Positions 2 to 37,790 of a DNA stretch of 64,000 nt are shown piece by piece; position 1 is the stretch's first letter; each line of letters opens with the position of its first letter. This DNA comes from a virus. The stretch spans positions 32,001 to 96,000 of the IMG/VR virus record IMGVR_UViG_3300025435_001056. One strand, given 5' to 3'. Made by a program: the position numbers and the translations under genes. The notes beneath the pieces are model-generated. The model was not told the origin of the DNA and did not search any database. It saw only the letters and a list, made by a program, of their open reading frames with translations.

Positions 2-124
2 GCAATTACTGTGGGTAGTGGACCTACTGCGCAAGTATATGTCCACAACGGACGCAATTATGTAGATCAATCAACTGGCAACCTTATGCCACCTACTGTG
101 GCCAAGTCTATGGGCTTAAAATGA
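2..124 (+). CDS. 3' end of an upstream hypothetical protein (partial)
   Basis: Open frame from the window edge ending at TGA 122-124, with an ATGA overlap onto the next gene. Confidence 0.6.
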   Translation, partial: AITVGSGPTAQVYVHNGRNYVDQSTGNLMPPTVAKSMGLK

Positions 125-2052
125 AACTCCTAGAAGGTGGTAATGTATTCAAGAACGGCGACGGCCAATCCTTAACACAACGTATCAATCAGACTGATGT
201 TAAATCGACACTTGCTTGGCTTGAAGAAATGTTGCCAGATCTTGATTTACAAAATAATACTCTTGGTAGTACTGGTATTAAAGACACCAGTGGAGACTTG
301 GATATCGCCGTAGATGCCAATCGAGTTAGCAAAGAACAACTGGTAGCACAATTGTCACAGTGGGCCGTGAGTCAGGGATTTAAGCCTGAAGACTATGTTC
401 GTAAATCTGGCACCGCTGTACATTTTAAAACTCCAATTGATGGCCGCCCGGATCGCGGTTATGTGCAAACGGACTTTATGTTTATGAAAGATGTTCCGTG
501 GTCAAAGTTTGTGCTAGGGGCGATGCCGGCAGATTCAAAGCACAAAGGCCGCGAGCGTAATGTGCTTATAAACAGTATAGCTAAGAGTATGGGTTACAAG
601 TTAAATCAGAATTCTGGAATACAACGCAGAGACGATCCTAGTAATACATTAATTACAAATAATCCCGACGAAGTTGCTAAGTTACTGTTAAACAAGACAT
701 CTACACGACAAGACTTAGCAAGCGTAGAATCTATATTACAAGCACTAAGCACCGATCCTAAACGCGAAAAAAAATTAGCAGATTTTAAACAACATATGGA
801 AAGAGAAGGATTGCCGTTTCTGGAAACTACAAATGAAAATACAGACTTGTACCAAGATTACAATGAAGTAAATTTTTTGGCTCGTTTACGAGACCGTATT
901 GTTAATCAAGGCATGCAGGTTATTATTGAAGCAGAAGTTCAAGGCGGCCGTGCCAAAGGTATTGAACACTTGGAAGATCTAGTGTTTCGTTTAGGCAGTG
1001 TTGGCATCAAACAAGCCATGAACATTGTGAAACACACCACACAAGACACACCAGGAACTACCACGGTCAAGTGGGACGGCAAACCTGCCCTAGTATTTGG
1101 ACGCGATACCGACGGTACATTTATCTTGACCGATGTGTCAGGATTCACCGCCCGCGGTTACAACGGCTTGTTTACCAGTCCTAGACAGGTGCGTCAACAT
1201 TTGGCCGCTAGAGATCGCGAAGCCGAAGCACAGGGCCGTCCGGCTACTCGTGTGCAGGATCTTGCTCCTATCTATGACAAGTTATGGGGCATGTTAGACG
1301 CCGCGGTACCTAAGAACTATCAAGGCTTCTTTCAAGGCGATCTGTTGTACACTGATACTCCGCCTGTAGAAGCTGGGAACTATGTATTTCGACCCAACGA
1401 AATAGAATACAAGATACCAGCCGCCAGTGATATTGGTCAGCGTATTGGTGCCAGTGAAGTTGGCATAGCCATGCACACTCGCTATGCTGAACCCGGGGCT
1501 GTCAAAGAACCCATTGGCACGTTCGAATTTAATTTGGTACCAGGATTGTTACTGTTGGAACCCGTGACGGCCAAGCAAAATATCAAGCCAGAAGCACAGG
1601 CCGTCAAGCAACTGCGTACCATCTACAACACCCAAGGTGCCGCTATAGATCAACTGTTCAATCCGGCCGATCTTCGGGCTCAGCAAATTACCGACCTGCC
1701 CAAGCTGTGTGTGGATTACATCAACAGTTGTGTAGGTGCAAATTTTGATAACCTCTTGTCGGATTTTGGTCCATGGCTGTTGCAACATGCTGGCCCACGC
1801 AAGTTTGGCAACATAGTAGAATATCTGAAAAGTCCACAGAGCAATCTTGGTGCCATGGCGGCCGCATTTGATACTTGGGAACTACTACACGCTATCAAAA
1901 TGGACTTATTAGGACAACTTGATCTACAGCACCCGGGGCAGGAAGGTTGGGTCATGGCTACACCTGCTGGTATGGCCAAGGCGGTAAATCGTCTAGCCGG
2001 TGGATTTACTGCGGCAAATCGGGCTCTAAATAATCCTAAACAACAGGCCTAA
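121..2052 (+). CDS. Two-domain protein: Pol-beta-type nucleotidyltransferase plus RNA-ligase-like (DUF6267-like) domain
   Basis: N-terminal LGSTG..SGDLDI and VQTD motifs; C-terminal HLED, TVKWDG, FQGDLL, EGWV and AKAVNR resemble ligase motifs I, III, IV and V. Confidence 0.65.
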   Translation: MKLLEGGNVFKNGDGQSLTQRINQTDVKSTLAWLEEMLPDLDLQNNTLGSTGIKDTSGDLDIAVDANRVSKEQLVAQLSQWAVSQGFKPEDYVRKSGTAVHFKTPIDGRPDRGYVQTDFMFMKDVPWSKFVLGAMPADSKHKGRERNVLINSIAKSMGYKLNQNSGIQRRDDPSNTLITNNPDEVAKLLLNKTSTRQDLASVESILQALSTDPKREKKLADFKQHMEREGLPFLETTNENTDLYQDYNEVNFLARLRDRIVNQGMQVIIEAEVQGGRAKGIEHLEDLVFRLGSVGIKQAMNIVKHTTQDTPGTTTVKWDGKPALVFGRDTDGTFILTDVSGFTARGYNGLFTSPRQVRQHLAARDREAEAQGRPATRVQDLAPIYDKLWGMLDAAVPKNYQGFFQGDLLYTDTPPVEAGNYVFRPNEIEYKIPAASDIGQRIGASEVGIAMHTRYAEPGAVKEPIGTFEFNLVPGLLLLEPVTAKQNIKPEAQAVKQLRTIYNTQGAAIDQLFNPADLRAQQITDLPKLCVDYINSCVGANFDNLLSDFGPWLLQHAGPRKFGNIVEYLKSPQSNLGAMAAAFDTWELLHAIKMDLLGQLDLQHPGQEGWVMATPAGMAKAVNRLAGGFTAANRALNNPKQQA

Positions 2053-5302: not shown

Positions 5303-6181
5303 ATGGACAATCGCATTACGATCGACAAGCTCGAATTCTACATCACCAATGTGTGCAATCTAACCTGCACCGGTTGCAATAGATACAACAACTACAAATT
5401 TGCCGGTTGGCAAGACTACAACGATTATCACGATATCATACAAGAATGGACTAAAAAGATTCGTGTGACCAAAGCCATAATTCTGGGTGGAGAACCCTTG
5501 CTGAACCCCACAATCAATCAGTGGATCGATGGCATCAAAGCCGCTTGGCCTGATGCCTATTCGCCTGAGATTATCAGCAACGGTACTCGACTTGATTTGG
5601 TGGATGGTCTGTACGAAACTTGCCATCGCAACGGTTCCTGGATAGCTGTCAGCGTACACAGAGATTCTGACATTGAGCTGTTGTCTGTGCGTGTGAGGAA
5701 TTTTTTAACTCACCCAATCCGAGAAGGAGTTGCACTCCGTGCCGACATGAACAGCGATTATCAATTTATTGATGCCAATGGCGTACAGGTTCATGTGTGG
5801 AAAAATTATAATTTTTTGCAAAACAACATAATTGAACGCAGTGACGGTTCACGCACTTTATGGCAAAGTGATCCAATAGCAGCTCATGCGATTTGTCCTC
5901 AGGTTCTGCATAAAAATTATCATTTTCTTAATGGAAAGATTTACAAATGTGGTATGGCACCCTTGATGGCCGAGTTTGATCGCCAATATCCGTTTGATAT
6001 ATCCAAAGAGGATCGTGCCATAATACACACAGATTCTGGACTTGGCATTGATGAATTTGACCTGCGTGGAGAGGAATTTTTTCGTAATATAGACAATCCA
6101 ATTGCACACTGTAAATTTTGTCCAGACACATTTGAGTGGCACCAAATTGAATTTACCAATCTCAAGCCCAACAAGATTTGA
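5303..6181 (+). CDS. Radical SAM protein
   Basis: CNLTCTGC (CxxxCxxC), LGGEPLL, ISNG, C-terminal CxxC of a SPASM/twitch-like domain. Confidence 0.9.
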   Translation: MDNRITIDKLEFYITNVCNLTCTGCNRYNNYKFAGWQDYNDYHDIIQEWTKKIRVTKAIILGGEPLLNPTINQWIDGIKAAWPDAYSPEIISNGTRLDLVDGLYETCHRNGSWIAVSVHRDSDIELLSVRVRNFLTHPIREGVALRADMNSDYQFIDANGVQVHVWKNYNFLQNNIIERSDGSRTLWQSDPIAAHAICPQVLHKNYHFLNGKIYKCGMAPLMAEFDRQYPFDISKEDRAIIHTDSGLGIDEFDLRGEEFFRNIDNPIAHCKFCPDTFEWHQIEFTNLKPNKI

Positions 6182-7091: not shown

Positions 7092-7383
7092 AAAGATACA
7101 AAATAATTTAGCCCGTCGTAGCCAGGGCTTGGGCATTAGACTAGGTGTAAGAACCACAGGATGTTCGGGACTAGCCTACGTACTAGAATATGTGGACGAG
7201 AAATTGCCAGAAGATTCAGTTAGCGAGCAAGACGGATTTGTTATTGTGATGGATCCCAAGAGTCATGCATATCTTGATGGCTTAGAAATAGACTATGTAC
7301 GCCAAGGCCTTAACGAAGGTTTTGAATTCCGCAATCCCAATGAAAAAGACCGCTGTGGATGCGGAGAAAGTTTTCGTGTATAA
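7063..7383 (+). CDS. iscA: A-type Fe-S carrier IscA
   Basis: TTGCSGLAY and NPN..CGCGESF motifs. Confidence 0.95.
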   Translation: MITVTSTAVKKIQNNLARRSQGLGIRLGVRTTGCSGLAYVLEYVDEKLPEDSVSEQDGFVIVMDPKSHAYLDGLEIDYVRQGLNEGFEFRNPNEKDRCGCGESFRV

Positions 7384-8089
7384 CCCAAAATTTGATTATC
7401 AACCCTTGAGTCGTGTTAGTATAGATGGCAAGCGTCTGTATGCTACCCCAGATGGTAAAAAGTTGCCCAGTGTCACAACTGTATTAGAAAAAACCAAGCC
7501 CGAAGAAAAGAAAGCGGCCTTACAGCAATGGAGAGATCGTGTGGGTCATGCGAAGGCACAGGCTATCACCACCGAAGCGGCCAATCGTGGTACCAGAATG
7601 CACACCCATCTTGAGCACTACGTCAAAACTGGCGAGCTCAAAGACCGCGGATCAAATCCGTTTGGTTGGGCCAGTCATGCCATGGCGCAAACTGTAATTG
7701 AAGATGGCTTACAAAATGTCTCAGAGTTCTGGGGTGTAGAAATTCCCCTGTATTTTCCCAGCCTGTATGCTGGCACCACTGACGGCTGTGGCATACACCT
7801 GGGCGATGAGTCAATCCTAGACTACAAACAAACCAACAAGCCCAAGAAGCAGGAGTGGATTGAAGATTACTACCTACAGCTGACAGCCTATGCTCTGGCT
7901 CACAACGAAGTTTATGGCACTAACATACGCAAGGGTGTGGTGTTAATGTGTGTTAAACCACCGGTAGATGACATGGGCAATCCACTTGCACGCCCGGTTT
8001 ACCAAGAATTCATTCTTAAATCTGAAGATTTCGACTACTGGTCAGATCAGTGGTGGCGTCGCTTAGAACTGTATTATTTGATGGCCTAA
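7376..8089 (+). CDS. PD-(D/E)XK exonuclease (Cas4/MGME1-like phage exonuclease)
   Basis: PSVTTVL, RGTRMH, YAGTTD, ILDYK and QLTAYA motifs; probable GTG start at 7376 with GGAG upstream. Confidence 0.85.
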   Translation: MYNPKFDYQPLSRVSIDGKRLYATPDGKKLPSVTTVLEKTKPEEKKAALQQWRDRVGHAKAQAITTEAANRGTRMHTHLEHYVKTGELKDRGSNPFGWASHAMAQTVIEDGLQNVSEFWGVEIPLYFPSLYAGTTDGCGIHLGDESILDYKQTNKPKKQEWIEDYYLQLTAYALAHNEVYGTNIRKGVVLMCVKPPVDDMGNPLARPVYQEFILKSEDFDYWSDQWWRRLELYYLMA

Positions 8090-8373: not shown

Positions 8374-9957
8374 TTGGCCATAGTACAGATATCGCAAATC
8401 ACCAACCGCAAAGGATTGGCAATAGATTTACCACAGTTGGCTGGTGCCGAGTTTGGCTGGTCAACAGACACTCGACAGTTGTGGATCGGTAACGGTACCA
8501 TAGCTGATGGTGCTCCGGTTATTGGTAATACTGAAATTTTAACAGAATTTAGTGACATTCTGGCCTTTACCAATACCTACACTTACCAAGGTCGAGCTGC
8601 CGGATACGCTGTACAAACTGGCGCTACCCCAGGAACACCGGTTACCTTAAGCCTGCAACAATGGATGGATCAATTTGCTAGTGTTCTGGATTTTGGAGCA
8701 GTAGGCGACGGAGTAACTGATGATACAGCCGCAATTAATCGGGCCTTATATCAATTATATTGTAGAGAAGTCAATCCGCAAGTGCGTCGTGGTTTATTTT
8801 TTCCAGCCGGCATTTATAAAGTTTCGGGCACCATTGATATTCCTCCGTATGCCATGATAATGGGCGAAGGTATTGACAGCTCAATAATTAGTTTAGTCAA
8901 TGAAAGTGGATCCGTGCCATATGTGGCACAGACTGCCGACAGTTTACAACAGACCGGAGTTAACATTGCAACCAATGGTGCTATACCCCCACAGTATATC
9001 AACATCAGCAATATAGGATTCCAGTCAGTTGATCCTGTTGCAAACGTATTTCTTGTGGGTCAAGCTACCAACTGTCGTTTCCAGAATGTAGGCTTTAATG
9101 GTCCTCTGACCACTGCTGATTTGTATGCACCTCACTTGACAGTTGCAGTGGATTTTTACAGTACCACCACCTTGACCTGCAATCAAATTGTGTTTGATGG
9201 ATGTGTTTTTGACGGCACAGGTTATGCGGTCAACACAACCCAGTCTCTACAAGGAATCACTTTTACCAATTCAAAATTTACAACCTTTTATCAAGGTATT
9301 GTGTTGGGCAACGGAACACCTATTGCACCGGCCACAACATTTGACATAACTGGAGTTAGAATCACCGGTAATTTATTTGACAGCATCTATAGAGAAGGTG
9401 TTGTGTTTGGACAAATCACCATGAATGCGACCGGCCACAACATGTTCTACGATGTAGGAAACCATTTTACTGGAGCCACCGGCACACCTGAAACGGCTAT
9501 TATTGATTTACAATACAACAACAATATCAGCATCAGTGACCTATTCCAGCGAGTCTTGGTGTATGCATCCACTTATCCTTGTGTACAACTAAACAACCTA
9601 CAAAACATTGCCACTACTAATGGTGGACAGTTGCAGTTGGGTACTCAGATTATGGAATCAGGCACAAAGGCAACTTTGATCAACAACAACACGGGTACTA
9701 TTTTTAGCATACAAATTGATCGTATATCAGCTCTGACTGTGAGCTATACCATAAGTCGCCTACCCACAGGTATCCGTACTGGTGCCATTTCGGTAGTGAC
9801 CAATCCCTTATTTTACAGTGACGACTACATTGACAACTCCGATACCGGAGTGACTTTGAGTTTTGTACAGGTTAGCGATTTGATTAGTTTAAATTATCTG
9901 ACCACCGACACTGGATTTGATGGAACCATCAGCTATTCCGTATCTTATCATTATTGA
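8374..9957 (+). CDS. Tailspike/fibre with Mtd_N-like N-terminus and pectate-lyase-like beta-helix
   Basis: LPQLAGAEFGWSTDTRQLWIGNG; SVLDFGAVGDGVTDDTAAINRA and FPAGIY motifs; TAAATA near 8343. Confidence 0.8.
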   Translation: MAIVQISQITNRKGLAIDLPQLAGAEFGWSTDTRQLWIGNGTIADGAPVIGNTEILTEFSDILAFTNTYTYQGRAAGYAVQTGATPGTPVTLSLQQWMDQFASVLDFGAVGDGVTDDTAAINRALYQLYCREVNPQVRRGLFFPAGIYKVSGTIDIPPYAMIMGEGIDSSIISLVNESGSVPYVAQTADSLQQTGVNIATNGAIPPQYINISNIGFQSVDPVANVFLVGQATNCRFQNVGFNGPLTTADLYAPHLTVAVDFYSTTTLTCNQIVFDGCVFDGTGYAVNTTQSLQGITFTNSKFTTFYQGIVLGNGTPIAPATTFDITGVRITGNLFDSIYREGVVFGQITMNATGHNMFYDVGNHFTGATGTPETAIIDLQYNNNISISDLFQRVLVYASTYPCVQLNNLQNIATTNGGQLQLGTQIMESGTKATLINNNTGTIFSIQIDRISALTVSYTISRLPTGIRTGAISVVTNPLFYSDDYIDNSDTGVTLSFVQVSDLISLNYLTTDTGFDGTISYSVSYHY

Positions 9958-10370
9958 TGTGGCCTTTAACTTTTAGTGCCCGACTGGAGAGTTGGAGTCT
10001 CCTGCGTGATCGTTGTCAAAATATTTCTTTAGAATCTGCACTTGACGCCATTAATGAGTGGTGGTTTTTGGCACCGTGGCGTCCTTACTATCTACATTGG
10101 GATGACCAGGCCACATGGCCTGACCCTTGGCAACTTTTGAGCGACGATGTCTACTGTGATCTTGCTCGTGGGCTGGGAATCCTGTATACTGTAATTTTGC
10201 TGGACCGTGCGGATATGGCGGATGCAGAACTGATTTTAACCGAAACAGGTGATAATTTAGTCCAAGTAGCAAAAGAAAAATATATACTTAATTGGAGCAG
10301 AGAATCAGTCGTAAATACCTTCCAAGAGATTAAAATCAAACGGCGGTACCAGCAACACCCTATAAAATAA
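9957..10370 (+). CDS. Transglutaminase-like (BTLCP-like) fold protein
   Basis: WPDPWQLL...YCD...GILYT pattern. Confidence 0.4.
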   Translation: MWPLTFSARLESWSLLRDRCQNISLESALDAINEWWFLAPWRPYYLHWDDQATWPDPWQLLSDDVYCDLARGLGILYTVILLDRADMADAELILTETGDNLVQVAKEKYILNWSRESVVNTFQEIKIKRRYQQHPIK

Positions 10371-10398
10371 TAGTACATTAAAACAGAACGAGAGTTAG

Positions 10399-12723
10399 AT
10401 GACGCAGATTACAGTTGTAAAAAGAAGCGGCGCAAAAGAGCCACTACAGATTGATAAGTGGCAGGCACAAGTTGCTAAGGTATGTCAAGGAATTGCCGAT
10501 GTCAGTCAGTCCATGATAGAAATCAAAGCCCAGTTGCACTTCTATGATGGCATTACCACACAGGAGATCGACGGCATCACCCTGCGAGCCATTGTGGACT
10601 TGATTGATGTAGAATCAAATCCAGATGTAGGACATACCAACTATCAGTATGTGGCCGGCAAGCAACGTCTCAGCATGTTGCGCAAGGATGTTTACGGATC
10701 ATACGCTGTGCCGCATCTCTACAACATTGTGAAGAAGAATGTAGAAGTGGGTCTGTATACTCCAGAACTGTTGGATTGGTACACCAAGGATGATTGGAAT
10801 CGCATGAACGACATGCTGGACCATGACAAGGATGAACTATACTCATACGCGGCCATTGAACAGCTGATCGAAAAATATCTGGTGCGCAACAGAGCCACAA
10901 AGGAAATCTATGAAACCCCCCAAATTCGTTATATTATTGCGGCCGCTACTGTGTTCCATGCAGAAGAGCCCAATGCGACTAGAATGCGTTACATCAAAGA
11001 GTATTACAATGCTGCTAGTGATGGCCTGTTTACTCTTGCGACTCCTGTTCTGGCTGGACTGGGAACACCAACAAAACAATTTAGCTCTTGTGTGCTTATA
11101 CGTAGCGACGATGATCTGGATAGTATTTTTGCCTCAGGAGAAATGATGGCCAAGTATGCGGCCAAGCGAGCCGGCATCGGCTTGGAAGTTGGTCGTCTGC
11201 GTCCACTCGGTTCCGCCATTCGCGGTGGCGAAGTCATGCACACCGGTATGATTCCATTCCTTAAAAAATGGTTTGGCGATTTACGTAGTTGTAGTCAAGG
11301 AGGTATTAGAAATGCAAGTGCTACCGTATTTTATCCTATTTGGCATTATCAGTTCGATGATCTTATTGTGCTTAAGAATAATCAAGGAACAGAAGAAACA
11401 CGAGTAAGGTTCATGGACTATGGAGTTGTGCTTAATAGCTTTTTCTGGCGCAGATTCAAAAACAAAGAAATGATTACATTTTTTGATCCCAACGAAGTGC
11501 CGGACCTGTATGAAGCATTTTATCAAAACACTGAAAGATTTGAACAGCTCTATGTCAAGTACGAACGTCGTAAAGATTTAAGAACCAAGGTTATGGCCGC
11601 CGAAGATGTATTCAAAGGTGGCATACTTAAAGAACGCACAGATACCGGTCGTATCTATCTGGTGTTTATCGACAATGTTCAGAATCAAGGTCCGTTTGAT
11701 CCTGAATTCCATACCATTTACCAGAGTAACCTGTGCTGTGAAATCCTTTTACCTACTCGGCCATTCCGTCGTCTTGATGATGATGCTGGGCGTATTGCTC
11801 TTTGCACTCTTGGAAGTATTAACTGGGGTGCGTTCCGTAATCCTGAGGACATGCGCCGTGCTTGTCGTATCCTTCAGCGCAGCCTTTGCAATATTCTCGA
11901 TTATCAAGATTTTTTAAGTATTCAAAGCCAGCTGAGCAACGAAGAGATACAACCCTTGGGCATTGGTATCACCAACCTGGCCTACTGGCATGCCAAGCGC
12001 GGCCTTGAATATGGCGAAGCCGATGCCCTGCAAGAAGTCAAGACCTGGATGGAACATCAGGCCTACTACCTGACCGAAGCCACAGTGGAACTGGCTCGTG
12101 AGCGTGGCGCCTGCAAAGATTCAGCTCGCACACGCTATGGCCAAGGTGTATTTCCCTGGGAACTGCGTGCCAAGGCAGTCAACGAGTTGGTCAATTTTGA
12201 ACCCGAGTTAGACTGGGAAACCCTGCGCATGAACATGCAGGCCTATGGTGTTCGCAATGCCACCTTGATGGCAGTGGCCCCGGTTGAAAGCAGTTCGGTG
12301 GTAATCAATTCGACCAATGGTATTGAAATGCCCATGAGCCTGATCACAGTAAAAGAAAGCAAAGCCGGTAGTTTAATTCAGGTAGCACCTGAATACAACA
12401 AGCTCAAAAATAAATATCAACTCATGTGGGATCAGAAAGACTGCGAGGGTTATCTAAAAACGGCCGCTGTTATTGCGGCCTATGTTGACCAAAGCATAAG
12501 TACTAATACATTCTATTCGCCGAGACATTTTGCTGATCGTAAAGTACCATCAACACTTATTGCTAAGAATTTAATGTTAGCTCATATGTGGGGTCTTAAA
12601 ACGATGTATTACTCATTAATCGATAAACAAGGCAGTAAATCTGATAAATCAGATGATGCTGTAGCATTAGAAGTAATCGATTTTGACGAAGGCGAAGATG
12701 ATTGTTTGGCTTGTAAACTTTAA
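10399..12723 (+). CDS. nrdA: Ribonucleotide reductase class Ia alpha subunit with ATP cone
   Basis: VVKRSG cone, SSCVL, SNLCCEI, TMYY and C-terminal CLAC. Confidence 0.97.
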   Translation: MTQITVVKRSGAKEPLQIDKWQAQVAKVCQGIADVSQSMIEIKAQLHFYDGITTQEIDGITLRAIVDLIDVESNPDVGHTNYQYVAGKQRLSMLRKDVYGSYAVPHLYNIVKKNVEVGLYTPELLDWYTKDDWNRMNDMLDHDKDELYSYAAIEQLIEKYLVRNRATKEIYETPQIRYIIAAATVFHAEEPNATRMRYIKEYYNAASDGLFTLATPVLAGLGTPTKQFSSCVLIRSDDDLDSIFASGEMMAKYAAKRAGIGLEVGRLRPLGSAIRGGEVMHTGMIPFLKKWFGDLRSCSQGGIRNASATVFYPIWHYQFDDLIVLKNNQGTEETRVRFMDYGVVLNSFFWRRFKNKEMITFFDPNEVPDLYEAFYQNTERFEQLYVKYERRKDLRTKVMAAEDVFKGGILKERTDTGRIYLVFIDNVQNQGPFDPEFHTIYQSNLCCEILLPTRPFRRLDDDAGRIALCTLGSINWGAFRNPEDMRRACRILQRSLCNILDYQDFLSIQSQLSNEEIQPLGIGITNLAYWHAKRGLEYGEADALQEVKTWMEHQAYYLTEATVELARERGACKDSARTRYGQGVFPWELRAKAVNELVNFEPELDWETLRMNMQAYGVRNATLMAVAPVESSSVVINSTNGIEMPMSLITVKESKAGSLIQVAPEYNKLKNKYQLMWDQKDCEGYLKTAAVIAAYVDQSISTNTFYSPRHFADRKVPSTLIAKNLMLAHMWGLKTMYYSLIDKQGSKSDKSDDAVALEVIDFDEGEDDCLACKL

Positions 12724-20804: not shown

Positions 20805-22181
20805 ATGAACACCATAGACTTCAACGGTGATCAATTTAATGAGATCAAAGTGGCCGCAGACTGGATACGTGACTTAGAGAGTAGCGACAGTCGGTTACAC
20901 AAAGAATCAGTGATTGAGAAGGCCCTGATGGCAAGTAAGTTAGGGTCAGCTAATGCTCAATGTTTCTTGTTTAACTGTTATCAAGCCTACAACCCCTATT
21001 ATGTGTTCGGTGTCAAGAAAGTGCCCGAGACCGCAGGCTTAGAAAATCGACCCAATCCTTGGCCCAAGTTCTGGGCCATGCTAGAAGGCTTACGTACTCG
21101 TAGCCTTACCGGACACAATGCCAAGACCGCCATTGAGTTTATGAGCGAACAGTTTGATAGCGTAGAGTGGAACGGTCTAGCTCGCAGAGTCATCATCAAA
21201 GACCTACGCTGTGGTATCAGTGAAAAAACACTCAACAAAGTTCTTGGTAATACCGAATGGAAGATTCCGGTATTTACTTGCCAGCTGGCACAGGATTCTG
21301 GAGACCATCCTAGCAAGATGAAGGGTACTAAACGTCTAGAAGGCAAGTTGGATGGTGTACGGGTCATTGCGGTGGTATCTAAAAATACGGTAAATTTATA
21401 CAGCCGTAACGGCAAGCCATTTGAAAACTTTCCACAGATCGAACAGGCCTTAGATAGCATCGGTCAAGATCTAAGACGGCAATTGAATGTCAAAGGTATC
21501 CTTGTGTTGGATGGCGAAGTAGTGGGCAAGAGCTTTCAAGACTTAATGAAACAAGCACAACGCAAGACGGATGTCAGCACTGATGAAATGGTGTATCATA
21601 TTTTTGATTGGATGCCATTTGAAAACTTTAGTGAAGGTTTTTGGAACGCCCAACAGCGTAAACGCACACAAGCGTTAGAGTCAGTTCGCGAAACCGTTGA
21701 ACAATACGATTGCTTGACAGTGACCTCTGGTATCCTGGTAGACTTAGACCTAGCCGAAGGCCAGGATCAGTTGCGACGCTATGCCGATGATGCTATAGCC
21801 CAGGGGTTAGAAGGCATAATGATCAAAGAATGGGAAGCACCATATGAATGTCGTCGTAGTGCATTCTGGATGAAGTGGAAACCCACCATTACTGTGGATC
21901 TCAATATTGTGGGTTTTGAAGAAGGCACTGGTCGCAATACGGGCCGCCTGGGTGCTATAATATGTGAAGGAGTTGACAATGAAAGAACTATTAGTGTCAA
22001 TGTTGGCAGTGGCCTTAGTGACAGCAATCGTGATAGTTATTGGCTTGCCCGCAATCAGCTGGTTGGTCAAGTGGTCGAAGTCGAAGCTGATGCGGTAACT
22101 CAAAACCAAGACGGTACTTACAGTTTACGTTTCCCCCGTTTTATTCGTTTTCGTGGATTTGAACCTGGAGAAAAATTATGA
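20805..22181 (+). CDS. ATP-dependent DNA ligase
   Basis: EGKLDGVR, LDGEVV, EGIMIK, WMKWK, SLRFPRF. Confidence 0.96.
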   Translation: MNTIDFNGDQFNEIKVAADWIRDLESSDSRLHKESVIEKALMASKLGSANAQCFLFNCYQAYNPYYVFGVKKVPETAGLENRPNPWPKFWAMLEGLRTRSLTGHNAKTAIEFMSEQFDSVEWNGLARRVIIKDLRCGISEKTLNKVLGNTEWKIPVFTCQLAQDSGDHPSKMKGTKRLEGKLDGVRVIAVVSKNTVNLYSRNGKPFENFPQIEQALDSIGQDLRRQLNVKGILVLDGEVVGKSFQDLMKQAQRKTDVSTDEMVYHIFDWMPFENFSEGFWNAQQRKRTQALESVRETVEQYDCLTVTSGILVDLDLAEGQDQLRRYADDAIAQGLEGIMIKEWEAPYECRRSAFWMKWKPTITVDLNIVGFEEGTGRNTGRLGAIICEGVDNERTISVNVGSGLSDSNRDSYWLARNQLVGQVVEVEADAVTQNQDGTYSLRFPRFIRFRGFEPGEKL

Positions 22182-24476: not shown

Positions 24477-26399
24477 ATGCTATTTGCTTATTTTATCCTG
24501 GCTGTTGCGCTACTGATCGAAACAGTTGGTGCTTACTACAGTATCACTGGTCTGGCCGCAATTTTTTCGGGTGCGGTTATCCCAATCATGATCATGGGCG
24601 GTAGTTTAGAGTTAGGTAAGATTACCGCCGCAGTCTGGTTAAAGAACAACTGGAATCGTGCCGGTGCTACCTACAAGATGTATCTCCTGCCCGCAGTGGC
24701 CATGCTGATGTTGATCACCTCAATGGGTATTTTTGGCTACTTGAGCAAAGCTCACAATGATCAGAACTTAGTAAGTGGCGACATTCAATCAAAAATATTG
24801 ATTTATGATGAAAAAATTAAAACTTCTCGCGATAACATTGAAGCTGATCGTAAACAACTGCGCCAGATGGATGAAGCAGTAGACCAGATTATGTCACGCT
24901 CGACTACCGAAGGTGGCGCCGACAAGGCCAATGCTGTGCGCAAGAGCCAGTCAAAAGACCGTAGCGCACTGGCCCGAGACATTGAATACAACCAGAAACA
25001 GATTGCCACTCTTAACGATCAAGCCGCACCCATCCGTGCCGAGAATCGCAAGGTTGAAGCCGAAGTAGGTCCAATTAAATATATTGCCAAACTGATTTAC
25101 AGTGACAATCCTGATGCCAACATATTAGAAAAAGCAGTGACCTGGGTGATCATGATCATTGTGGCTGTATTTGATCCTTTGGCACTTGTCTTGATTTTAG
25201 CGGCACAGCAGAGCATACGTTGGGCACGAGGAAAAGATCAGGATAAACCAGAAGAGTCAGTAGAATCATGGTTCGAGCGTATTCAAAAACGTGCTCGTTT
25301 TTGGAATCAACAAAAAAAACTCGATACTAAAGAAGAGATAGATGAAACTCAATACTACATTGGCAATTTAGAGGATGCAGAACCAGTGGTAGATCAACTT
25401 GTCGACATATCCCCGGAAGATTATTATTGTGCCATGGGTCTGTTTGATCGACACTACTATCAAGATCCTGGAATTAATGATTCTCTTACTAAAAATGTTG
25501 CTGACCATGCGCCCGATGATGGTCTGCTAACCAAAGATCAAATTGCTCAAATTCGTAAAATATCCAATAATGATTTACCGACAGGTCAAATTATTGCCAA
25601 GGAATTGATATTTACAGACCTTAGAGAACAGAATTCAGAACTGCCTACTTTTACCACTATTTTGGATAACAATACGGTACAACTATCAAAGGAAGATCCA
25701 CGGACGCTTGCAGAGTCTACTCTGGAAGAAGACGAAGCCTTTGATGAATTGACTAAAAAACAAGAAATCAATACTCAGTCACAACCTTCTGGTTGGATGT
25801 TTACCGAAATGCCACATCCTACATCCATAGTTGAATCAACAACAGATCCCTTAGCACATATTGAAATACCTGAAATACATCCTGACGATCATCTACAGCG
25901 ATTGGCTAAAAATTTATTCATGTCGGGCAATGCCGATCAGGATGAACGAGTATTTCATGCACAACATCAAGCTGGTGAAATTGATCAACTGCCATGGCTC
26001 ACTGAAGAACATATCAACAACATGCCAATCAGTGATGGAGAGCGCAAGCATTTAACCGATAGATTTGTCAAAACTGCAATACCCGTACCTGAATTGGGTC
26101 TGGAACCTGACAACGTAATGGCTCGACTTGCTGGCGAAGTGCGTGGGTTTGGCATACAGTTTCCAACCAACGTCAAAAAGGGCGATATGTTTTTACGAGT
26201 GGATCGCTTACCCAGCATATTATACAAATACAACGGCGTCAACTGGATCGAAGTGGACAAATCTCTTACCGACAACCACGCCTACGACGAGGCCTATATT
26301 GACCATTTGATTGCCAAAATTGATTCAGGGGAGTATGATCCTGAGCTATTAAGCGACGCCGAGCGTGACAGCATTGAACGACGATTACAACAACTATGA
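24477..26399 (+). CDS. Multi-pass membrane protein with periplasmic coiled coil and long acidic tail
   Basis: Three N-terminal TM segments, coiled coil, fourth TM (IVAVFDPLA); start reassigned to ATG 24477. Confidence 0.75.
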   Translation: MLFAYFILAVALLIETVGAYYSITGLAAIFSGAVIPIMIMGGSLELGKITAAVWLKNNWNRAGATYKMYLLPAVAMLMLITSMGIFGYLSKAHNDQNLVSGDIQSKILIYDEKIKTSRDNIEADRKQLRQMDEAVDQIMSRSTTEGGADKANAVRKSQSKDRSALARDIEYNQKQIATLNDQAAPIRAENRKVEAEVGPIKYIAKLIYSDNPDANILEKAVTWVIMIIVAVFDPLALVLILAAQQSIRWARGKDQDKPEESVESWFERIQKRARFWNQQKKLDTKEEIDETQYYIGNLEDAEPVVDQLVDISPEDYYCAMGLFDRHYYQDPGINDSLTKNVADHAPDDGLLTKDQIAQIRKISNNDLPTGQIIAKELIFTDLREQNSELPTFTTILDNNTVQLSKEDPRTLAESTLEEDEAFDELTKKQEINTQSQPSGWMFTEMPHPTSIVESTTDPLAHIEIPEIHPDDHLQRLAKNLFMSGNADQDERVFHAQHQAGEIDQLPWLTEEHINNMPISDGERKHLTDRFVKTAIPVPELGLEPDNVMARLAGEVRGFGIQFPTNVKKGDMFLRVDRLPSILYKYNGVNWIEVDKSLTDNHAYDEAYIDHLIAKIDSGEYDPELLSDAERDSIERRLQQL

Positions 26400-27598
26400 C
26401 CAATACTTTAGTTCATTGTAGTTTTTGTGTCAAACACAAAGACCAGGTGGGTAAATTAATTGTAAGCCAGGACGTAGCTATCTGTAGCGAATGTGTCGAA
26501 CTTTGCAACAATCTACTCAAAGACAATCGCAAGCCCGTACTTAAATCTAGATCTGATCCATCTGTTCCGGATCCCTTGGCAATAAAACAATATCTTGATC
26601 AATATGTGGTAGGTCAAGATCAGGCCAAAATAGTGCTTAGTGTTGCAGTAACCAATCATTTTAAACGCATTATTCGTGGCGGCACTGACCTACAAAAAAG
26701 TAATGTACTCATGATTGGGCCAACTGGTACCGGAAAAACACTCATGGCTAGCACTGTGGCTCGTTACTTAGATGTGCCATTTGTGATCGCTGATGCTACC
26801 ACATTAACCGAAGCTGGCTATGTAGGCGATGACGTGGAAAGTTTAATTACTAGATTGTACACTGCTGCTGATAGTAACATTGAACGATGTCAACGCGGTA
26901 TTGTGTTTCTGGATGAAATTGACAAGATATCCAGAAAAAGCGAAAGTGCCACAGTAACCAAGGATGTATCGGGCGAAGGAGTACAACAGGCTCTGCTCAA
27001 ATTAGTAGAAGGTACACGATGCCGCATTTCAACACAGGGATCAAAAAAAACCAGCTCAGCTGACACTGTGGAAATTGACACTACCAATATCTTGTTTGTA
27101 GCCAGCGGCGCATTTGTAGGCTTGGACCAAATTGTACAAAAAAGAAAACAAGGTACATCTATTGGATTTAATTCTGGCATAGCCAATAACAAAAATGACA
27201 ATCTTACCGAAGTAGTACCGGATGACCTGGTCAGTTACGGTATGATTCCTGAATTTGTAGGACGCTTTGGCGGATATGTAAGCCTACATGGGCTGGACAA
27301 AATGCAACTGATTAGTATTTTGACTCAGGTTAAAAACAATTTTGTAGCCCAGTATCAATGGTTGTTTGATCAAGATGGTGTAAGTTTAGAATTTGATGCA
27401 GAAAGCTTGGATCTTATAGCCGAGCGTACACTTGAGACTCGTACTGGTGCACGAGGTTTGCACAGCGAATTAGAACGCATCCTGTTACCACACATGTTTG
27501 ATCTGCCACGATATAATCGGCAAAATATACTGAAAATTATAATCAACAAGACCCAGGTAAATACTCCTATGACACTACTATTACAGGAAAATTTGTGA
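26396..27598 (+). CDS. clpX: Clp protease ATPase ClpX
   Basis: CSFC..CSEC zinc domain, [20 protein letters not shown] loop, GARGL. Confidence 0.95.
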
Positions 27599-30783: not shown

Positions 30784-31095
30784 ATGATGCCGAACGCCGG
30801 AACAGTTGCACAAGTAAAAATCAATCACGAGCTCAAAGAGCCTCCTATGTTCAAGATCATCTATTTAAATGACAACCAAACTACCATGGAATTTGTAATT
30901 GAAACCTTGTTGAGCTTTTTTGATTACACCGCAGACACCGCTTTAAAAATTACTCAAGACATACACGAAGCCGGTTCGGCTGTGGTAGCGGTACTACCTT
31001 ATGAAGTTGCTGAGCAAAAAGGTATCGAAGTTACAGTACATGCTAGATCAAATAATTATCCGTTACAGATCAAATTAGAACCTGAGACAGTCTAA
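30784..31095 (+). CDS. clpS: N-degron adaptor ClpS
   Basis: PPMFKIIYLNDNQTTMEFV, IHEAG.AVV, EVAEQK, YPLQ. Confidence 0.92.
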   Translation: MMPNAGTVAQVKINHELKEPPMFKIIYLNDNQTTMEFVIETLLSFFDYTADTALKITQDIHEAGSAVVAVLPYEVAEQKGIEVTVHARSNNYPLQIKLEPETV

Positions 31096-31883
31096 AACTT
31101 AATCTCTATTCGTTTAGGGTAGTAGGCAGATTGACAATATTCGGTGTCGCCGCGACCACGACAGTTGTTAACATATCGAACGCCAGCGAAATTTCTGTCA
31201 ACTGATCGATGATAGTGTCCAAAACACCAGACTTTGATTTTACATTCGGTATCTTCTTTTAAAGCCTGTTCGAGGTGACGATTACCCATGCAGTTAAATC
31301 TCCAGGTTCCAATTAAATCTATGTCATGGTCAATGATCCATGGTGCTGGTACTGTGTGACTGATTACCACAATAGCTCGAACTTCGGCATGTGTCTGTAA
31401 TTGGTATACACTATTGATCATGTAAGCAGCATCATGGTAGGCCACACCGTTTATCCCCATAGCTTCATTATGTGTGATACCGTAACGATTTCGATACCAC
31501 TCGATTGATTGCTCCAGATCTAATGAGGAATCAAAATCATAGCACCACCAACCATTGGTGGCCAAAAAAGCCACGCCGTTTACAATAACTACATGGTCCT
31601 GCAGGTAAATCACATTAGGAATATTAGAAATTTCTTGAGTTAACTCTTGATAACTAGCACCTAGATCGGTAAGAAAACAACGGTGTTCGTCATTACCATC
31701 AATGTAAAATACGCCACCAGGATAGCACGTACCTAAATGTGTTAAGGTATCGATCAATTGAGACCGATCCTGAGCTATATCACCGGCTATCACACAATAT
31801 GGGCTGGTAGCCTGGTCGGTCCAGTCAAAGGTGTCCCAGGTATCGACGTGTAGATCGGAAATTAAATCAAAGGCAAAAGTCAT
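31092..31883 (-). CDS. Calcineurin-like metallophosphoesterase
   Basis: SDLH, AGD, GNDE, SHTVP, FGHYH. Confidence 0.88.
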   Translation of the reverse strand: MTFAFDLISDLHVDTWDTFDWTDQATSPYCVIAGDIAQDRSQLIDTLTHLGTCYPGGVFYIDGNDEHRCFLTDLGASYQELTQEISNIPNVIYLQDHVVIVNGVAFLATNGWWCYDFDSSLDLEQSIEWYRNRYGITHNEAMGINGVAYHDAAYMINSVYQLQTHAEVRAIVVISHTVPAPWIIDHDIDLIGTWRFNCMGNRHLEQALKEDTECKIKVWCFGHYHRSVDRNFAGVRYVNNCRGRGDTEYCQSAYYPKRIEIKF

Positions 31884-35629: not shown

Positions 35630-36727
35630 ATGACATATTTTTTTACCAGTGAAAGTGTAAGTGAAGGACACCCGGATAAAGTAGCAGATGCTATCAGTGA
35701 TGCTGTTTTGGATTTGGTTATGCAAGAAAAAAATACAGCACTGCGGTGTGCATGTGAAACATTGGTTACAACCAATCGCGTGGTAGTAGCCGGCGAGTAC
35801 AAGGGTGTATTAGATCAAGAAGAAGTTGATGGTGTTATCCGTAAAGTTATTAAAGACATCGGGTACGAACAATCAGGTTTTGATTGGCGTACAGTGGAAA
35901 TTACTAATCTGCTACATGGACAAAGTGCAGATATTGCCTTGGGTACAGACTCTTTTGGTGCCGGCGACCAAGGACTCATGTTTGGATATGCTTGTAACGA
36001 AACTAACGATTACATGCCCAGTGCTATCTACTGGAGTCATAGAATTGTAGAAGGACTTACACAAGTAAGAAAACAAGGCATACTTAATTATCTTGGCCCG
36101 GATGCCAAGAGTCAAGTCACATTCGAATACAGCGACGATGATAAACCAGTTCGTATTGCCAAAGTGGTTTGTAGCACCCAACATGCGGCTGATGTTGACA
36201 TCGAAACTGTAAGGAAAGATGTGGGAAATATTATTCGTAACATATTGCCAACAGAATATATTGACAATGCAACAGAATTTTATATTAACCCTACTGGCAG
36301 ATTTGTAATTGGGGGGCCAGATGGGGACACCGGCTTGACAGGTCGCAAGATCATTGTAGACACCTATGGTGGTTATAGTCCACATGGTGGCGGTGCGTTC
36401 TCTGGCAAGGACCCTACCAAAGTAGATCGTAGTGCTGCTTACTTAACACGCTATTTGGCCAAAAATATTGTAGCAAGTGGGCAAGCTACCTGGGCCACGG
36501 TACAGATCAGCTATGCCATTGGCGTTGCCGAACCAATGAGTTTTTATGTAGAGAGTAACGGCGATAGTTGTGGTTTGACCAAATGGATACAGTCCAATGT
36601 TGATCTGACTCCAAAAGGCATTATTGAGCGTTTTGATTTATTCCGCCCGATCTATACAAACACAACCAATTATGGACATTTTGGTAAAGCTAATTTGCCG
36701 TGGGAAAAGATTAATTTGTTTGATTGA
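35630..36727 (+). CDS. metK: S-adenosylmethionine synthetase
   Basis: FTSESVSEGHPDK, GAGDQG, GGGAFSGKDPTKVDRS, YGHFG. Confidence 0.97.
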   Translation: MTYFFTSESVSEGHPDKVADAISDAVLDLVMQEKNTALRCACETLVTTNRVVVAGEYKGVLDQEEVDGVIRKVIKDIGYEQSGFDWRTVEITNLLHGQSADIALGTDSFGAGDQGLMFGYACNETNDYMPSAIYWSHRIVEGLTQVRKQGILNYLGPDAKSQVTFEYSDDDKPVRIAKVVCSTQHAADVDIETVRKDVGNIIRNILPTEYIDNATEFYINPTGRFVIGGPDGDTGLTGRKIIVDTYGGYSPHGGGAFSGKDPTKVDRSAAYLTRYLAKNIVASGQATWATVQISYAIGVAEPMSFYVESNGDSCGLTKWIQSNVDLTPKGIIERFDLFRPIYTNTTNYGHFGKANLPWEKINLFD

Positions 36728-36752
36728 CACAAAAAGCCTTTAGTTGTATAAT
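36724..36752 (+). promoter_or_regulatory. Perfect sigma70 promoter TTGACA-N17-TATAAT, 6 nt before ATG 36759
   Basis: Exact consensus. Confidence 0.8.
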
Positions 36753-36758
36753 AGCTGT

Positions 36759-37790
36759 ATGACTACACTAAAGCGTATTGGTTTCTGTTGCAAGTGGCTC
36801 AATGATCCGTCTGAATGTGGCGGCATGAAGGTCAATGCAATGGATCGTGATCTCAACGGCCGTAGCACTACCATGCGTTGGTTGCGAGAACATCCTGATC
36901 AAGCTGAACAGCGTCAGTGGGATATCATGAATCACAATACGGCGGCCGCTGTGCGCTTGATTGAACGTGTGGCCACCTTGCCGCCTGAACGGCGTATGGT
37001 GCGACTAGGTAGTGAAATGCTACAAGGCTATACCGAGAAGGACTGGAAAGCCTGGTGGCAACAAGCAGATGTGCAGAATCACCTGGAGCAAATCTTTGCA
37101 CCCATCGGTGAAACAGCTCGTAGGCTTGATGTGCGTCTCAGTTTTCACCCTGGACAGTTTTGTGTCCTAGCGTCAGAGAATCCTGGTATTGTAGAACGAA
37201 GCTTAGAGGAGTTTGAATATCATGCGGATATGGCCAGGTGGATGGGTTATGGTAAATCATTTCAAGACTTCAAGATCAATGTTCATATTTCAGGCAAGCG
37301 TGGTCCCGAAGGTATTAGAGAAGCCTACAAGAAGCTGTCGCCTGAAGCTCGTAACTGCATCACTATCGAAAACGAAGAAAACTCATGGGGGTTGAATGAT
37401 TGTCTTACCATTTCTGATCTTGTACCTATTGTGCTCGACGTTCATCATTATTGGATCCGCGAAGGAGCCTATCTCCAGCCAGACGACGAGCGTGTTAAAC
37501 GAGTTGTTGATAGCTGGCGTGGTGTTCGCCCTGCTATGCATTATAGTATCAGCCGGGAAGACATACTTGTGGGACATGATGCACATCAAGCCCCCGACTA
37601 TGCGGCGCTTTTGGTAGAAGGCCACAAGAAGCAAAAGTTACGAGCACACTCAGACTTCTACTGGAATCAACCGGTCACTGACTGGGCACTCAGCTTCTGG
37701 AACCAGTTTGACATACAGTGCGAATCAAAATCTAAGAACCTGGCCAGTGAACAGGTTTACAATCGTGCAGTAGAACTAGGTTTGGTATAA
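36759..37790 (+). CDS. uvdE: UV damage endonuclease
   Basis: RIGFCC, RLSFHPGQF, NVHISG, IENEE, LDVHH, HSDF, CESK.K. Confidence 0.9.
   Translation: MTTLKRIGFCCKWLNDPSECGGMKVNAMDRDLNGRSTTMRWLREHPDQAEQRQWDIMNHNTAAAVRLIERVATLPPERRMVRLGSEMLQGYTEKDWKAWWQQADVQNHLEQIFAPIGETARRLDVRLSFHPGQFCVLASENPGIVERSLEEFEYHADMARWMGYGKSFQDFKINVHISGKRGPEGIREAYKKLSPEARNCITIENEENSWGLNDCLTISDLVPIVLDVHHYWIREGAYLQPDDERVKRVVDSWRGVRPAMHYSISREDILVGHDAHQAPDYAALLVEGHKKQKLRAHSDFYWNQPVTDWALSFWNQFDIQCESKSKNLASEQVYNRAVELGLV

Follow-up and report, generated by a model that had tools for sequence, protein, structure and literature searches.

The subject of this study is a gene located at positions 121-2052 on the plus strand of a stretch of viral DNA of 64,000 nucleotides, termed the window throughout, which comprises bases 32001-96000 of the 176.6-kb IMG/VR record IMGVR_UViG_3300025435_001056. 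The gene encodes a protein of 643 residues, whose predicted structure combines a minimal DNA polymerase of family X (PolX) with a domain of the family DUF6267, which we propose to be a divergent polynucleotide ligase. Taken together, its features, of which the folds, the conservation of the motifs, the linkage of the modules and the genomic context are shown here, make it somewhat probable that the protein is a bifunctional enzyme that fills and seals gapped or nicked DNA, whose substrates, two activities, cofactor and pathway we infer. With an estimated completeness of 51%, the size of the record identifies the source virus as a jumbo phage, and its host is bacterial.

The fusion protein belongs to a large family, which encompasses more than 3,900 matching sequences in 90% clusters and 1,341 matching representatives in a 50% library and which, where the taxonomy is known, is almost entirely viral. 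The only curated family that matches the protein is DUF6267 (PF19782, E 1.7e-26), which covers its C-terminal part. Comparison of the whole protein to Pfam, PHROGs and NCBIfam has revealed nothing beyond this domain and PHROG 455, which carries no assigned function, and phmmer and profile searches against PDB sequences have returned chance matches alone (NLRP9 PYD, DesK and GldL, with E >0.03). In the literature, no description of the family was found under DUF6267, 'cytitidyltransferase' or phage PolX, and DUF6267 itself is mentioned in no searchable paper. An earlier note, prepared from the letters of the window, had described the open reading frame as a Pol-beta nucleotidyltransferase fused to an RNA-ligase-like domain and had listed the motifs GDLD (nucleotides 292-303, residues 58-61), VQTD, KWDG (nucleotides 1069-1080), FQGD and EGWV (from nucleotide 1942) together with a final lysine. 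The reading frame and each of these motifs were found at the claimed positions, the final lysine being K620 within the sequence AKAVNR, and the catalytic residues are conserved across the family, where D59, D61, D118, D407 and E608 are invariant and K317 and K620 at least 90% conserved. The proposed fusion of a nucleotidyltransferase of the Pol-beta superfamily to a covalent nucleotidyltransferase with a KxDG motif is thus supported by motifs and folds.

A palm-and-thumb polymerase module

The N-terminal domain (residues 1-235, positions 121-825 and, as all parts of the fusion gene, on the plus strand) consists of a palm (about residues 19-122), a thumb (about residues 123-203) and a short helical extension. 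Its predicted nucleotide and metal site is defined by the sequence LGSTG...SGDLDIAV (262-312), which follows the Pol-beta-type pattern hG[GS]-x9-DxD and contains G49, S50, D59 and D61, and by VQTDF (463-477), where VQTD (residues 115-118) provides D118 as third catalytic aspartate. Near the start of the protein, LLEGGNVFK (127-153) represents a family-wide [LIV]-x-E-GGN[VI]FK motif, which belongs to the core of the domain or, alternatively, is a site for a T4-type protease with L/I-x-E specificity. In an alignment of 25 sequences of the module, G52, G58, D59, D61 and D118 are invariant and E5, G6, G7, T19, R21, H101, S139, S152 and A154 nearly so, although these sequences share only 38-78% identity. 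The motifs are thus not a product of chance.

The relationship to family X is reflected in an AlphaFold2 model of the module, which shows a mean predicted local distance difference test score (pLDDT) of 90.1. When used as query in Foldseek, all of its top 50 PDB matches were family X polymerases, and comparison to these enzymes with VIA-align yielded Z-scores of 10.2-9.8 and root mean square deviations (rmsd) of 3.2-3.6 Å for 160-180 aligned residues. In the superposition on Pol beta, residues 11-203 of the module match residues 139-335 of the enzyme, comprising palm and thumb up to its C-terminus (165 residues aligned, rmsd 3.4, Z 9.9-10.2). The best nine representatives in an unbiased structural search with one chain per PDB cluster also all belong to family X, with Z-scores of 9.9-7.5 and alignments that span 150-180 residues of palm and thumb. 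These are Pol beta (Z 9.9), Leishmania Pol beta (9.5), two entries of the Pol beta palm-thumb or catalytic domain in complexes with XRCC1 (9.4 and 9.3), TdT (9.2), Pol lambda (9.1), Thermus PolX (8.9), Pol X of African swine fever virus (ASFV; 8.7, with 150 of 176 residues aligned at an rmsd of 3.2) and Pol mu (7.5). Terminal uridylyltransferases (TUTases), poly(A) polymerases, CD-NTases, OAS and CCA-adding enzymes rank below PolX with 80-95 aligned residues (23-130 of the model), and an identity of the N-terminal half as CCA-adding enzyme, CD-NTase, MNT or TUTase was rejected because such enzymes align over this core alone. The Pol-beta nucleotidyltransferase of the earlier note was therefore correctly placed with respect to its superfamily, and the alignment over palm and thumb sharpens this placement to a minimal family X DNA polymerase.

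The module lacks the 8-kDa domain, which confers 5'-phosphate binding and deoxyribose phosphate (dRP) lyase activity, and the helix-hairpin-helix fingers, as the domain begins with residue 1 and no other part comes before the palm. These absences do not exclude its membership in the family, since ASFV Pol X is also devoid of both parts, an architecture that has been described as unique to this enzyme (PMC5537341). Based on the model, we thus assign the N-terminal half as an ASFV-type minimal PolX that consists of palm and thumb. On the level of profiles, the fusion protein shows no match to the Pfam models DNA_pol_B_palm and DNA_pol_B_thumb at E-values up to 10, with single family members reaching 0.081 for the palm and 0.22 for the thumb, and a search of the genome with PF14792 gave no result for the N-terminal half.

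A ligase fold with a helical insert

The two domains are connected by a linker (826-960), which shows low pLDDT in both domain models and which contains a conserved helix, FLARLRDRIVNQGM (874-915), and the sequence VIIE/AE (919-936), whose pattern [IL]-[IV]-E-[ASNT] is kept in 121 close homologues. The following DUF6267 domain (residues 281-643, 961-2049) is predicted to adopt the fold of covalent nucleotidyltransferases found in ligases. Its motif I, KWDG (residues 317-320, 1069-1080), contains K317 as predicted AMP-accepting lysine. The region at 1324-1410 holds GFFQGDLLY, which resembles motif III (D407, with FQGD at residues 404-407), and FRPNEIEY, which resembles motif IIIa (F423, N426 and Y430), and a beta-hairpin at 1942-1992 carries EGWV (residues 608-611, with E608 and G609) and AKAVNR (K620 and R624) as counterparts of motifs IV and V. 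An all-helical insert of about 113 residues (492-604, 1594-1932) is located between motifs IIIa and IV. In the AlphaFold2 model of this module (mean pLDDT 90.7), KWDG terminates one strand and precedes another, as it does in ligases, while GDLLY and FxPNxxxY are placed on beta-strands and EGWV and KxVxR on the closing hairpin. The order I, III, IIIa, IV and V is thus the one found in ligases, with the motifs being mapped by order and secondary structure and not by residue-level structural equivalence. Past motif V, the model contains no strands save a short tail, and an OB domain is thus lacking.

The conservation of these features was analyzed in an alignment of 30 sequences of the module with 30-57% identity, in which, in the numbering of the full-length protein, D338, R364, G402, D407, F423, Y430, G439, H452, K593, E608, G609, V611, V622 and R624 are invariant and H283, D286, K317, D319, G320, R328 and K620 at least 90% conserved. 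In the homologue P0131, a fragment of 424 residues, an intein (Intein_splicing, Pfam E 3.4e-8) directly follows KWDG. Inteins are usually located in conserved active-site motifs, and this placement thus fits a catalytic role of KWDG.

Foldseek searches with the C-terminal module returned weak matches (E >=0.012), almost all of them to ligases. The assignment is more clearly expressed in an independent VIA search of 48,161 chains, where ligases for RNA or DNA occupy all of the top 26 positions (Z 7.3-5.1, with 141-200 residues aligned), followed by capping enzymes. Highest scores were obtained for NgrRnl (7.3), TbREL1 (7.0), Trl1 (6.9), T4 Rnl2 (6.5) and T4 Rnl1 (6.4), closely followed by the DNA ligases III and IV and those of T4, ASFV, Chlorella virus and T7 (6.2-5.5). 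The helical insert is skipped in the VIA alignments, which cover 160-200 of 379 residues, and other ligases do not contain such a module in the equivalent position. As judged from the model, the resemblance of DUF6267 to RNA ligases is confined to the level of the fold, since Pfam RNA-ligase families do not match any of the 30 DUF6267 members and a comparison of profiles with hhalign yielded a probability of 0.04 for T4 Rnl2 and nothing for the DNA ligase encoded elsewhere in the window. In the genome, PF01068 (DNA_ligase_A_M) matches the gene of this second ligase alone (20805-22181) but not DUF6267, and PF01653 (LigA) has no match although its controls score. Since less than one Z unit separates RNA from DNA ligases, the fold does not decide on the substrate of the module, and of the RNA-ligase-like domain proposed in the earlier note the ligase fold is supported but the RNA type is not established.

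The protein can be divided into two independent modules, which extend over residues 1 to about 240 and about 275 to 640 and each of which also occurs alone. They are joined in the same order in all 80 IMG/VR relatives that were fetched, with lengths of 617-658 residues where complete, whereas the reversed order is found in other homologues. In locus L003, a gene for an N-terminal module of 251 residues overlaps the start of a DUF6267 gene of 468 residues downstream of DnaB. The occurrence of fusions in both orders and of adjacent overlapping genes argues for a functional pair. Other partners also occur: a HIGH-motif cytidylyltransferase-like domain, which is nearest to NMN adenylyltransferases (NMNAT) but far below their cut-offs, is recurrently joined on either side of the modules and in all orders, the modules are fused to an NT5C/HAD phosphatase-type domain in homologue P0159, and the N-terminal domain is combined with PDDEXK_1 in an archaeal cluster. 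In the phage studied here, the NMNAT-like gene is located about 120 kb from the fusion gene. The metagenome contig L004 contains a gene for 232 residues with a GS..DVD motif (5306-6004) upstream of a stand-alone DUF6267 gene, with which it overlaps by 4 nucleotides. It is not homologous to the minimal PolX module and was rejected as its relative; it may encode another type of small nucleotidyltransferase that takes the same place as partner.

The family extends to T4-like cyanophages. In S-CAM4 (L009), the DUF6267 gene gp098 is part of the replication module, where it is located downstream of the genes for gp41 helicase and MazG and overlaps with a gene annotated as cytidyltransferase that precedes the ribonucleotide reductase, and in S-CREM2 (OR473000) it is gp87 (58890-59777). 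The S-CAM4 protein gp099 was rejected as relative of the N-terminal domain for lack of homology. No ligase domains matching PF01068 or PF01653 were detected in the complete genomes of S-CAM4 and S-CREM2, whereas T4 and the phage studied here score for PF01068. DUF6267 may thus be the sole ligase-type enzyme of the two cyanophages.

A probable role in DNA repair and alternative functions

In the mechanism that we consider for the fusion protein, the minimal PolX, with D59, D61 and D118, would extend the 3'-OH at a gap by one or a few nucleotides. K317 of DUF6267 would become adenylylated and pass its AMP to the 5'-phosphate, upon which the nick would be closed, with the helical insert probably taking over the nucleic-acid-clamping role of the absent OB domain. 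The enzyme would most likely complete an excision-type repair, for example after nicking by the phage UvdE and trimming by an exonuclease. The recurrent NMNAT-like partner suggests NAD+ as a possible cofactor, which might be regenerated locally.

The genomic context provides candidates for such a pathway. In this phage clade, the fusion gene comes after a cluster for primase and helicase. Encoded upstream of it are a helicase, pieces of a DNA polymerase, a primase, a DnaB-type helicase and two radical S-adenosylmethionine (SAM) proteins, one before and one after DnaB. Three radical SAM genes in total (5303-6181 on the plus strand of the window, 9748-10857 and 12270-13280 of L002) are interleaved with the primase and helicase genes and with the block downstream of the fusion. 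The window also encodes a PD-(D/E)XK exonuclease (7295-8089), a UvdE UV-damage endonuclease (36744-37790, plus strand; PF03851, E 1.5e-31) as candidate upstream partner and a canonical ATP-dependent DNA ligase (20805-22181, plus strand; phrog_114, E 2.3e-89; PF01068). The UvdE gene adjoins one for SAM synthetase (MetK, 35630-36727). Of 12 larger related contigs, which are 6-58% complete, 8 encode UvdE and 11 a canonical ATP-dependent ligase. The jumbo-phage clade thus carries two genes of the ligase superfamily. Because of the separate canonical enzyme, the fusion is not the sole ligase of the phage, and it is thus probably a repair device and not a replicative ligase. Other genes of the window include a ribonucleotide reductase and tail-fibre genes, a phage GroEL (28554-30191, plus strand; phrog_5725, E 2e-180) and an AAA+/ClpX-like ATPase (26396-27598, plus strand).

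Several observations weigh against this assignment. Both the PolX and the ligase identity are derived from predicted structures and motifs, and neither half passes any Pfam or PDB sequence-profile threshold for the respective families. The Z-scores of the ligase fold (5-7.3) are middling, although the list is exclusive to ligases. Its nominal top matches (NgrRnl, TbREL1, Trl1 and Rnl2) are RNA ligases, with which the domain also shares the absence of an OB domain. The phage already contains a canonical DNA ligase, its UvdE is encoded 35 kb from the fusion gene, with the two being linked by co-occurrence alone without a baseline frequency, and neither an Xth-type apurinic/apyrimidinic (AP) endonuclease nor Ku was found in the 51%-complete record. 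A weak match to AP_endonuc_2 in the record was rejected as it turned out to be UvdE.

Some of these points would equally suit an enzyme for RNA repair or editing, whose N-terminal domain extends RNA 3' ends while the C-terminal RNA ligase reseals tRNA or mRNA, for example after attack by host anticodon nucleases. Besides the ranking of RNA ligases and the missing OB domain, such a role would be in line with the matches of the C-terminal module in BFVD outside of its own family, which are mostly to RNA ligases, with the pair of TUTase and REL ligase in trypanosome editing, which combines the same two folds, and with the fusions to HAD phosphatases, which would suit the healing of RNA ends. However, DNA ligases follow within one Z unit (6.2), and the N-terminal domain matches PolX through the thumb whereas RNA-specific nucleotidyltransferases match its core alone. 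The neighbours are genes of DNA replication and repair, tblastn searches of the record did not find a T4-type polynucleotide kinase (PNK), Rnl1 or Rnl2, and the window contains no tRNA genes. We thus regard a function in RNA repair as unlikely. The earlier note had suggested that a metallophosphoesterase at 31092-31883 could supply end healing. This is a generic calcineurin-like match (phrog_1649; the Pfam E-value of 0.0011 misses the cut-off), located 29 kb away on the opposite strand, with no evidence for a linkage to the fusion gene.

Even less probable, in our view, is a non-canonical nucleotide transfer together with the NMNAT-like partner, where the three transferases, instead of repairing breaks, would generate or attach a group derived from a nucleotide, for example to modify DNA ends or proteins or as a signalling or decoy nucleotide. 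It would draw on the recurrent fusions to the NMNAT-like domain, on its adjacent gene in S-CAM4 and on the strong divergence of the sequence from all characterised ligases and PolX enzymes, but the PolX thumb and the complete set of ligase motifs point to polynucleotide substrates, and the NMNAT-like domain is more simply explained by the supply or recycling of NAD+ for the ligase, its gene being remote in this phage. The functions suggested in the earlier note, namely end repair of tRNA or RNA, protein nucleotidylation and synthesis of decoy oligonucleotides, thus all fit less well than the filling and sealing of DNA, since the context, with primase, DnaB, exonuclease, UvdE and ligase, is one of DNA replication and repair and T4-type PNK, Rnl1 and Rnl2 were not found.

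Possible packaging, known systems and implications

The fusion gene is the last in a unit of three genes that is conserved among relatives and that encodes proteins of 82 and 194 residues and the fusion itself (13305-14124 of L002 together with 121-2052 of the window), with overlaps of 14 and 4 nucleotides. The start codon of the fusion gene overlaps the stop codon of the preceding gene in the sequence ATGA, and 4 nucleotides is also the median overlap in 66 related loci. From this arrangement, the three genes appear to be translationally coupled. The protein of 194 residues is rich in Gln, Thr and Pro and begins with MQIHEITE/A; it has no detectable relatives of known function, and the ESM Atlas provided no lead. 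The sequence AATAAATA, which differs from the T4 late box by one mismatch, is found 22 nucleotides before the first ATG of the unit, and a [TA]ATAAATA box precedes the unit in 17 of 38 related loci. The fusion gene itself has no box of this kind in front of it. Directly downstream of the fusion, a gene at 2083-2532 on the plus strand encodes a protein of about 136 residues rich in Ala, Gly, Thr and Asn, without a family match, whose position is conserved in 73 of 76 related loci. An exact TATAAATA is located before this gene in 26 of 73 loci but not in the window, and the gene product may be abundant, either as late protein or as part of the virion.

The earlier note had also proposed that the protein is packaged in the head and that MKLLE/GG at its start and IIE/AE at the domain junction resemble cleavage sites of the T4 protease gp21. 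Both sequences are present, and close homologues as well as the wider family maintain [LIV]-x-E at either place. The protein could thus be a virion cargo that is loaded into the prohead, cut by a T4-type protease after [LIV]-x-E in front of GGN and of the C-terminal domain and injected to mend the incoming genome, a scenario that we consider possible, if rather doubtful. It concerns localisation and is compatible with either DNA or RNA as substrate. The pattern [LIV]-x-E-G-G-N is found in 55 N-terminal copies, and almost everywhere in the family, [LIV]-x-E-[GAS] is located in front of RIxHxED, with which the C-terminal domain starts. Both sites are preserved in the 121 close homologues despite variation of the flanking residues, the site in the linker resides in a stretch of low confidence that is probably disordered, and stand-alone modules start with similar leaders of the type M-[KR]-h-x-E-h. 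Packaging would further agree with the position of the gene at the end of the presumably coupled unit and with the late-promoter-like sequence preceding it, and the partner cytidylyltransferase has been reported in virion proteomes of cyanophages (PMC10665884). The same L-x-E is, however, retained in 32 internal copies and is joined to the invariant core motifs GGN[VI]FK and RIxHxED, and it may thus be structural. The genes directly upstream are of replication and not of the head, an exact TATAAATA was not found before the fusion gene, and homologues of the T4 portal, protease and capsid proteins (gp20, gp21 and gp23) were not detected in the 51%-complete record by tblastn and with PF03420, for which there was no positive control. 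In the virion proteome of S-CREM2, the cytidylyltransferase is listed with 3 peptides but the DUF6267-like ORF87 is not (PMC10665884).

The closest parallel to the fusion is PgVPolX of Phaeocystis globosa virus 16T, which also combines an N-terminal PolX with a C-terminal ligase in one polypeptide. In this protein, PolX is fused to an NAD+-dependent ligase, and it fills the gap and seals the nick in base excision repair (PMC5537341). It has 1,093 residues and a complete Pol-beta core, to which the dRP-lyase domain of 8 kDa belongs, whereas the protein studied here, with 643 residues, is reduced to palm and thumb. Its ligase is of the NAD+-dependent LigA type, to which DUF6267 is unrelated (LigA adenylation domains show Z-scores of 4.2-4.3 to the module, without a match to PF01653), and it originates from a giant virus of eukaryotes, namely of algae, and not from a phage. 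In ASFV, Pol X (174 residues) is likewise a minimal PolX without 8-kDa domain and fingers and forms a viral repair pair with a ligase. There, the two are separate proteins and the ligase is a canonical ATP-dependent enzyme with an OB domain, whereas the phage polymerase domain, at about 16% identity, adds the strongly conserved N-terminal segment EGGNVFK..TxRI and the C-terminal helical extension. Bacterial LigD also unites nucleotide addition, end cleaning and sealing in one polypeptide, reminiscent of those family members that contain an HAD/NT5C phosphatase-type domain, but its polymerase has the archaeo-eukaryotic primase fold, its ligase is of the canonical type and its partner is Ku. Finally, the nick-sealing RNA ligases NgrRnl/Rnl5 of Naegleria, REL1 of T. 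brucei and T4 Rnl2 are the best matches of the C-terminal core (Z 7.3-6.3, 170-183 residues aligned) and share the absence of an OB domain. They differ in that sequence similarity is undetectable, in the helical insert of DUF6267, in an Asp instead of a Glu in its motif III and in K-x-V-x-R instead of K-x-K in its motif V.

Both PolX-ligase fusions and minimal PolX enzymes were thus already known, and what is new is their occurrence in a virus with a bacterial host, the reduction of the polymerase to palm and thumb and the uncharacterised clade of the ligase. A review of phage-encoded DNA polymerases from 2022 names the ASFV polymerase as sole viral enzyme of family X and does not mention a PolX in phages (PMC8775771). 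In a wider view, which as a whole we put forward tentatively and consider rather improbable, DUF6267 would define a new class of polynucleotide ligases with a helical insert in place of the OB domain, which, together with the phage-specific minimal PolX and in many phages an NMNAT-like cofactor enzyme, would constitute a widespread set of repair enzymes in aquatic phages that has not been described. In T4-like cyanophages, which lack any canonical ligase domain, it would take the place of the missing DNA ligase, and in the jumbo-phage clade it might be delivered in the capsid and, upon entry, mend DNA that is nicked or damaged by UV. If correct, thousands of uncultured aquatic phages would possess a repair polymerase of the smallest type known, coupled to a ligase from a novel branch of its superfamily, and this would explain how T4-like cyanophages cope without a recognisable DNA ligase. 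The protein would provide a compact enzyme for the filling and sealing of gaps with possible use as a reagent, and it would imply that repair by PolX and ligase in a single polypeptide, which has so far been demonstrated in an algal giant virus alone, arose independently in phages.

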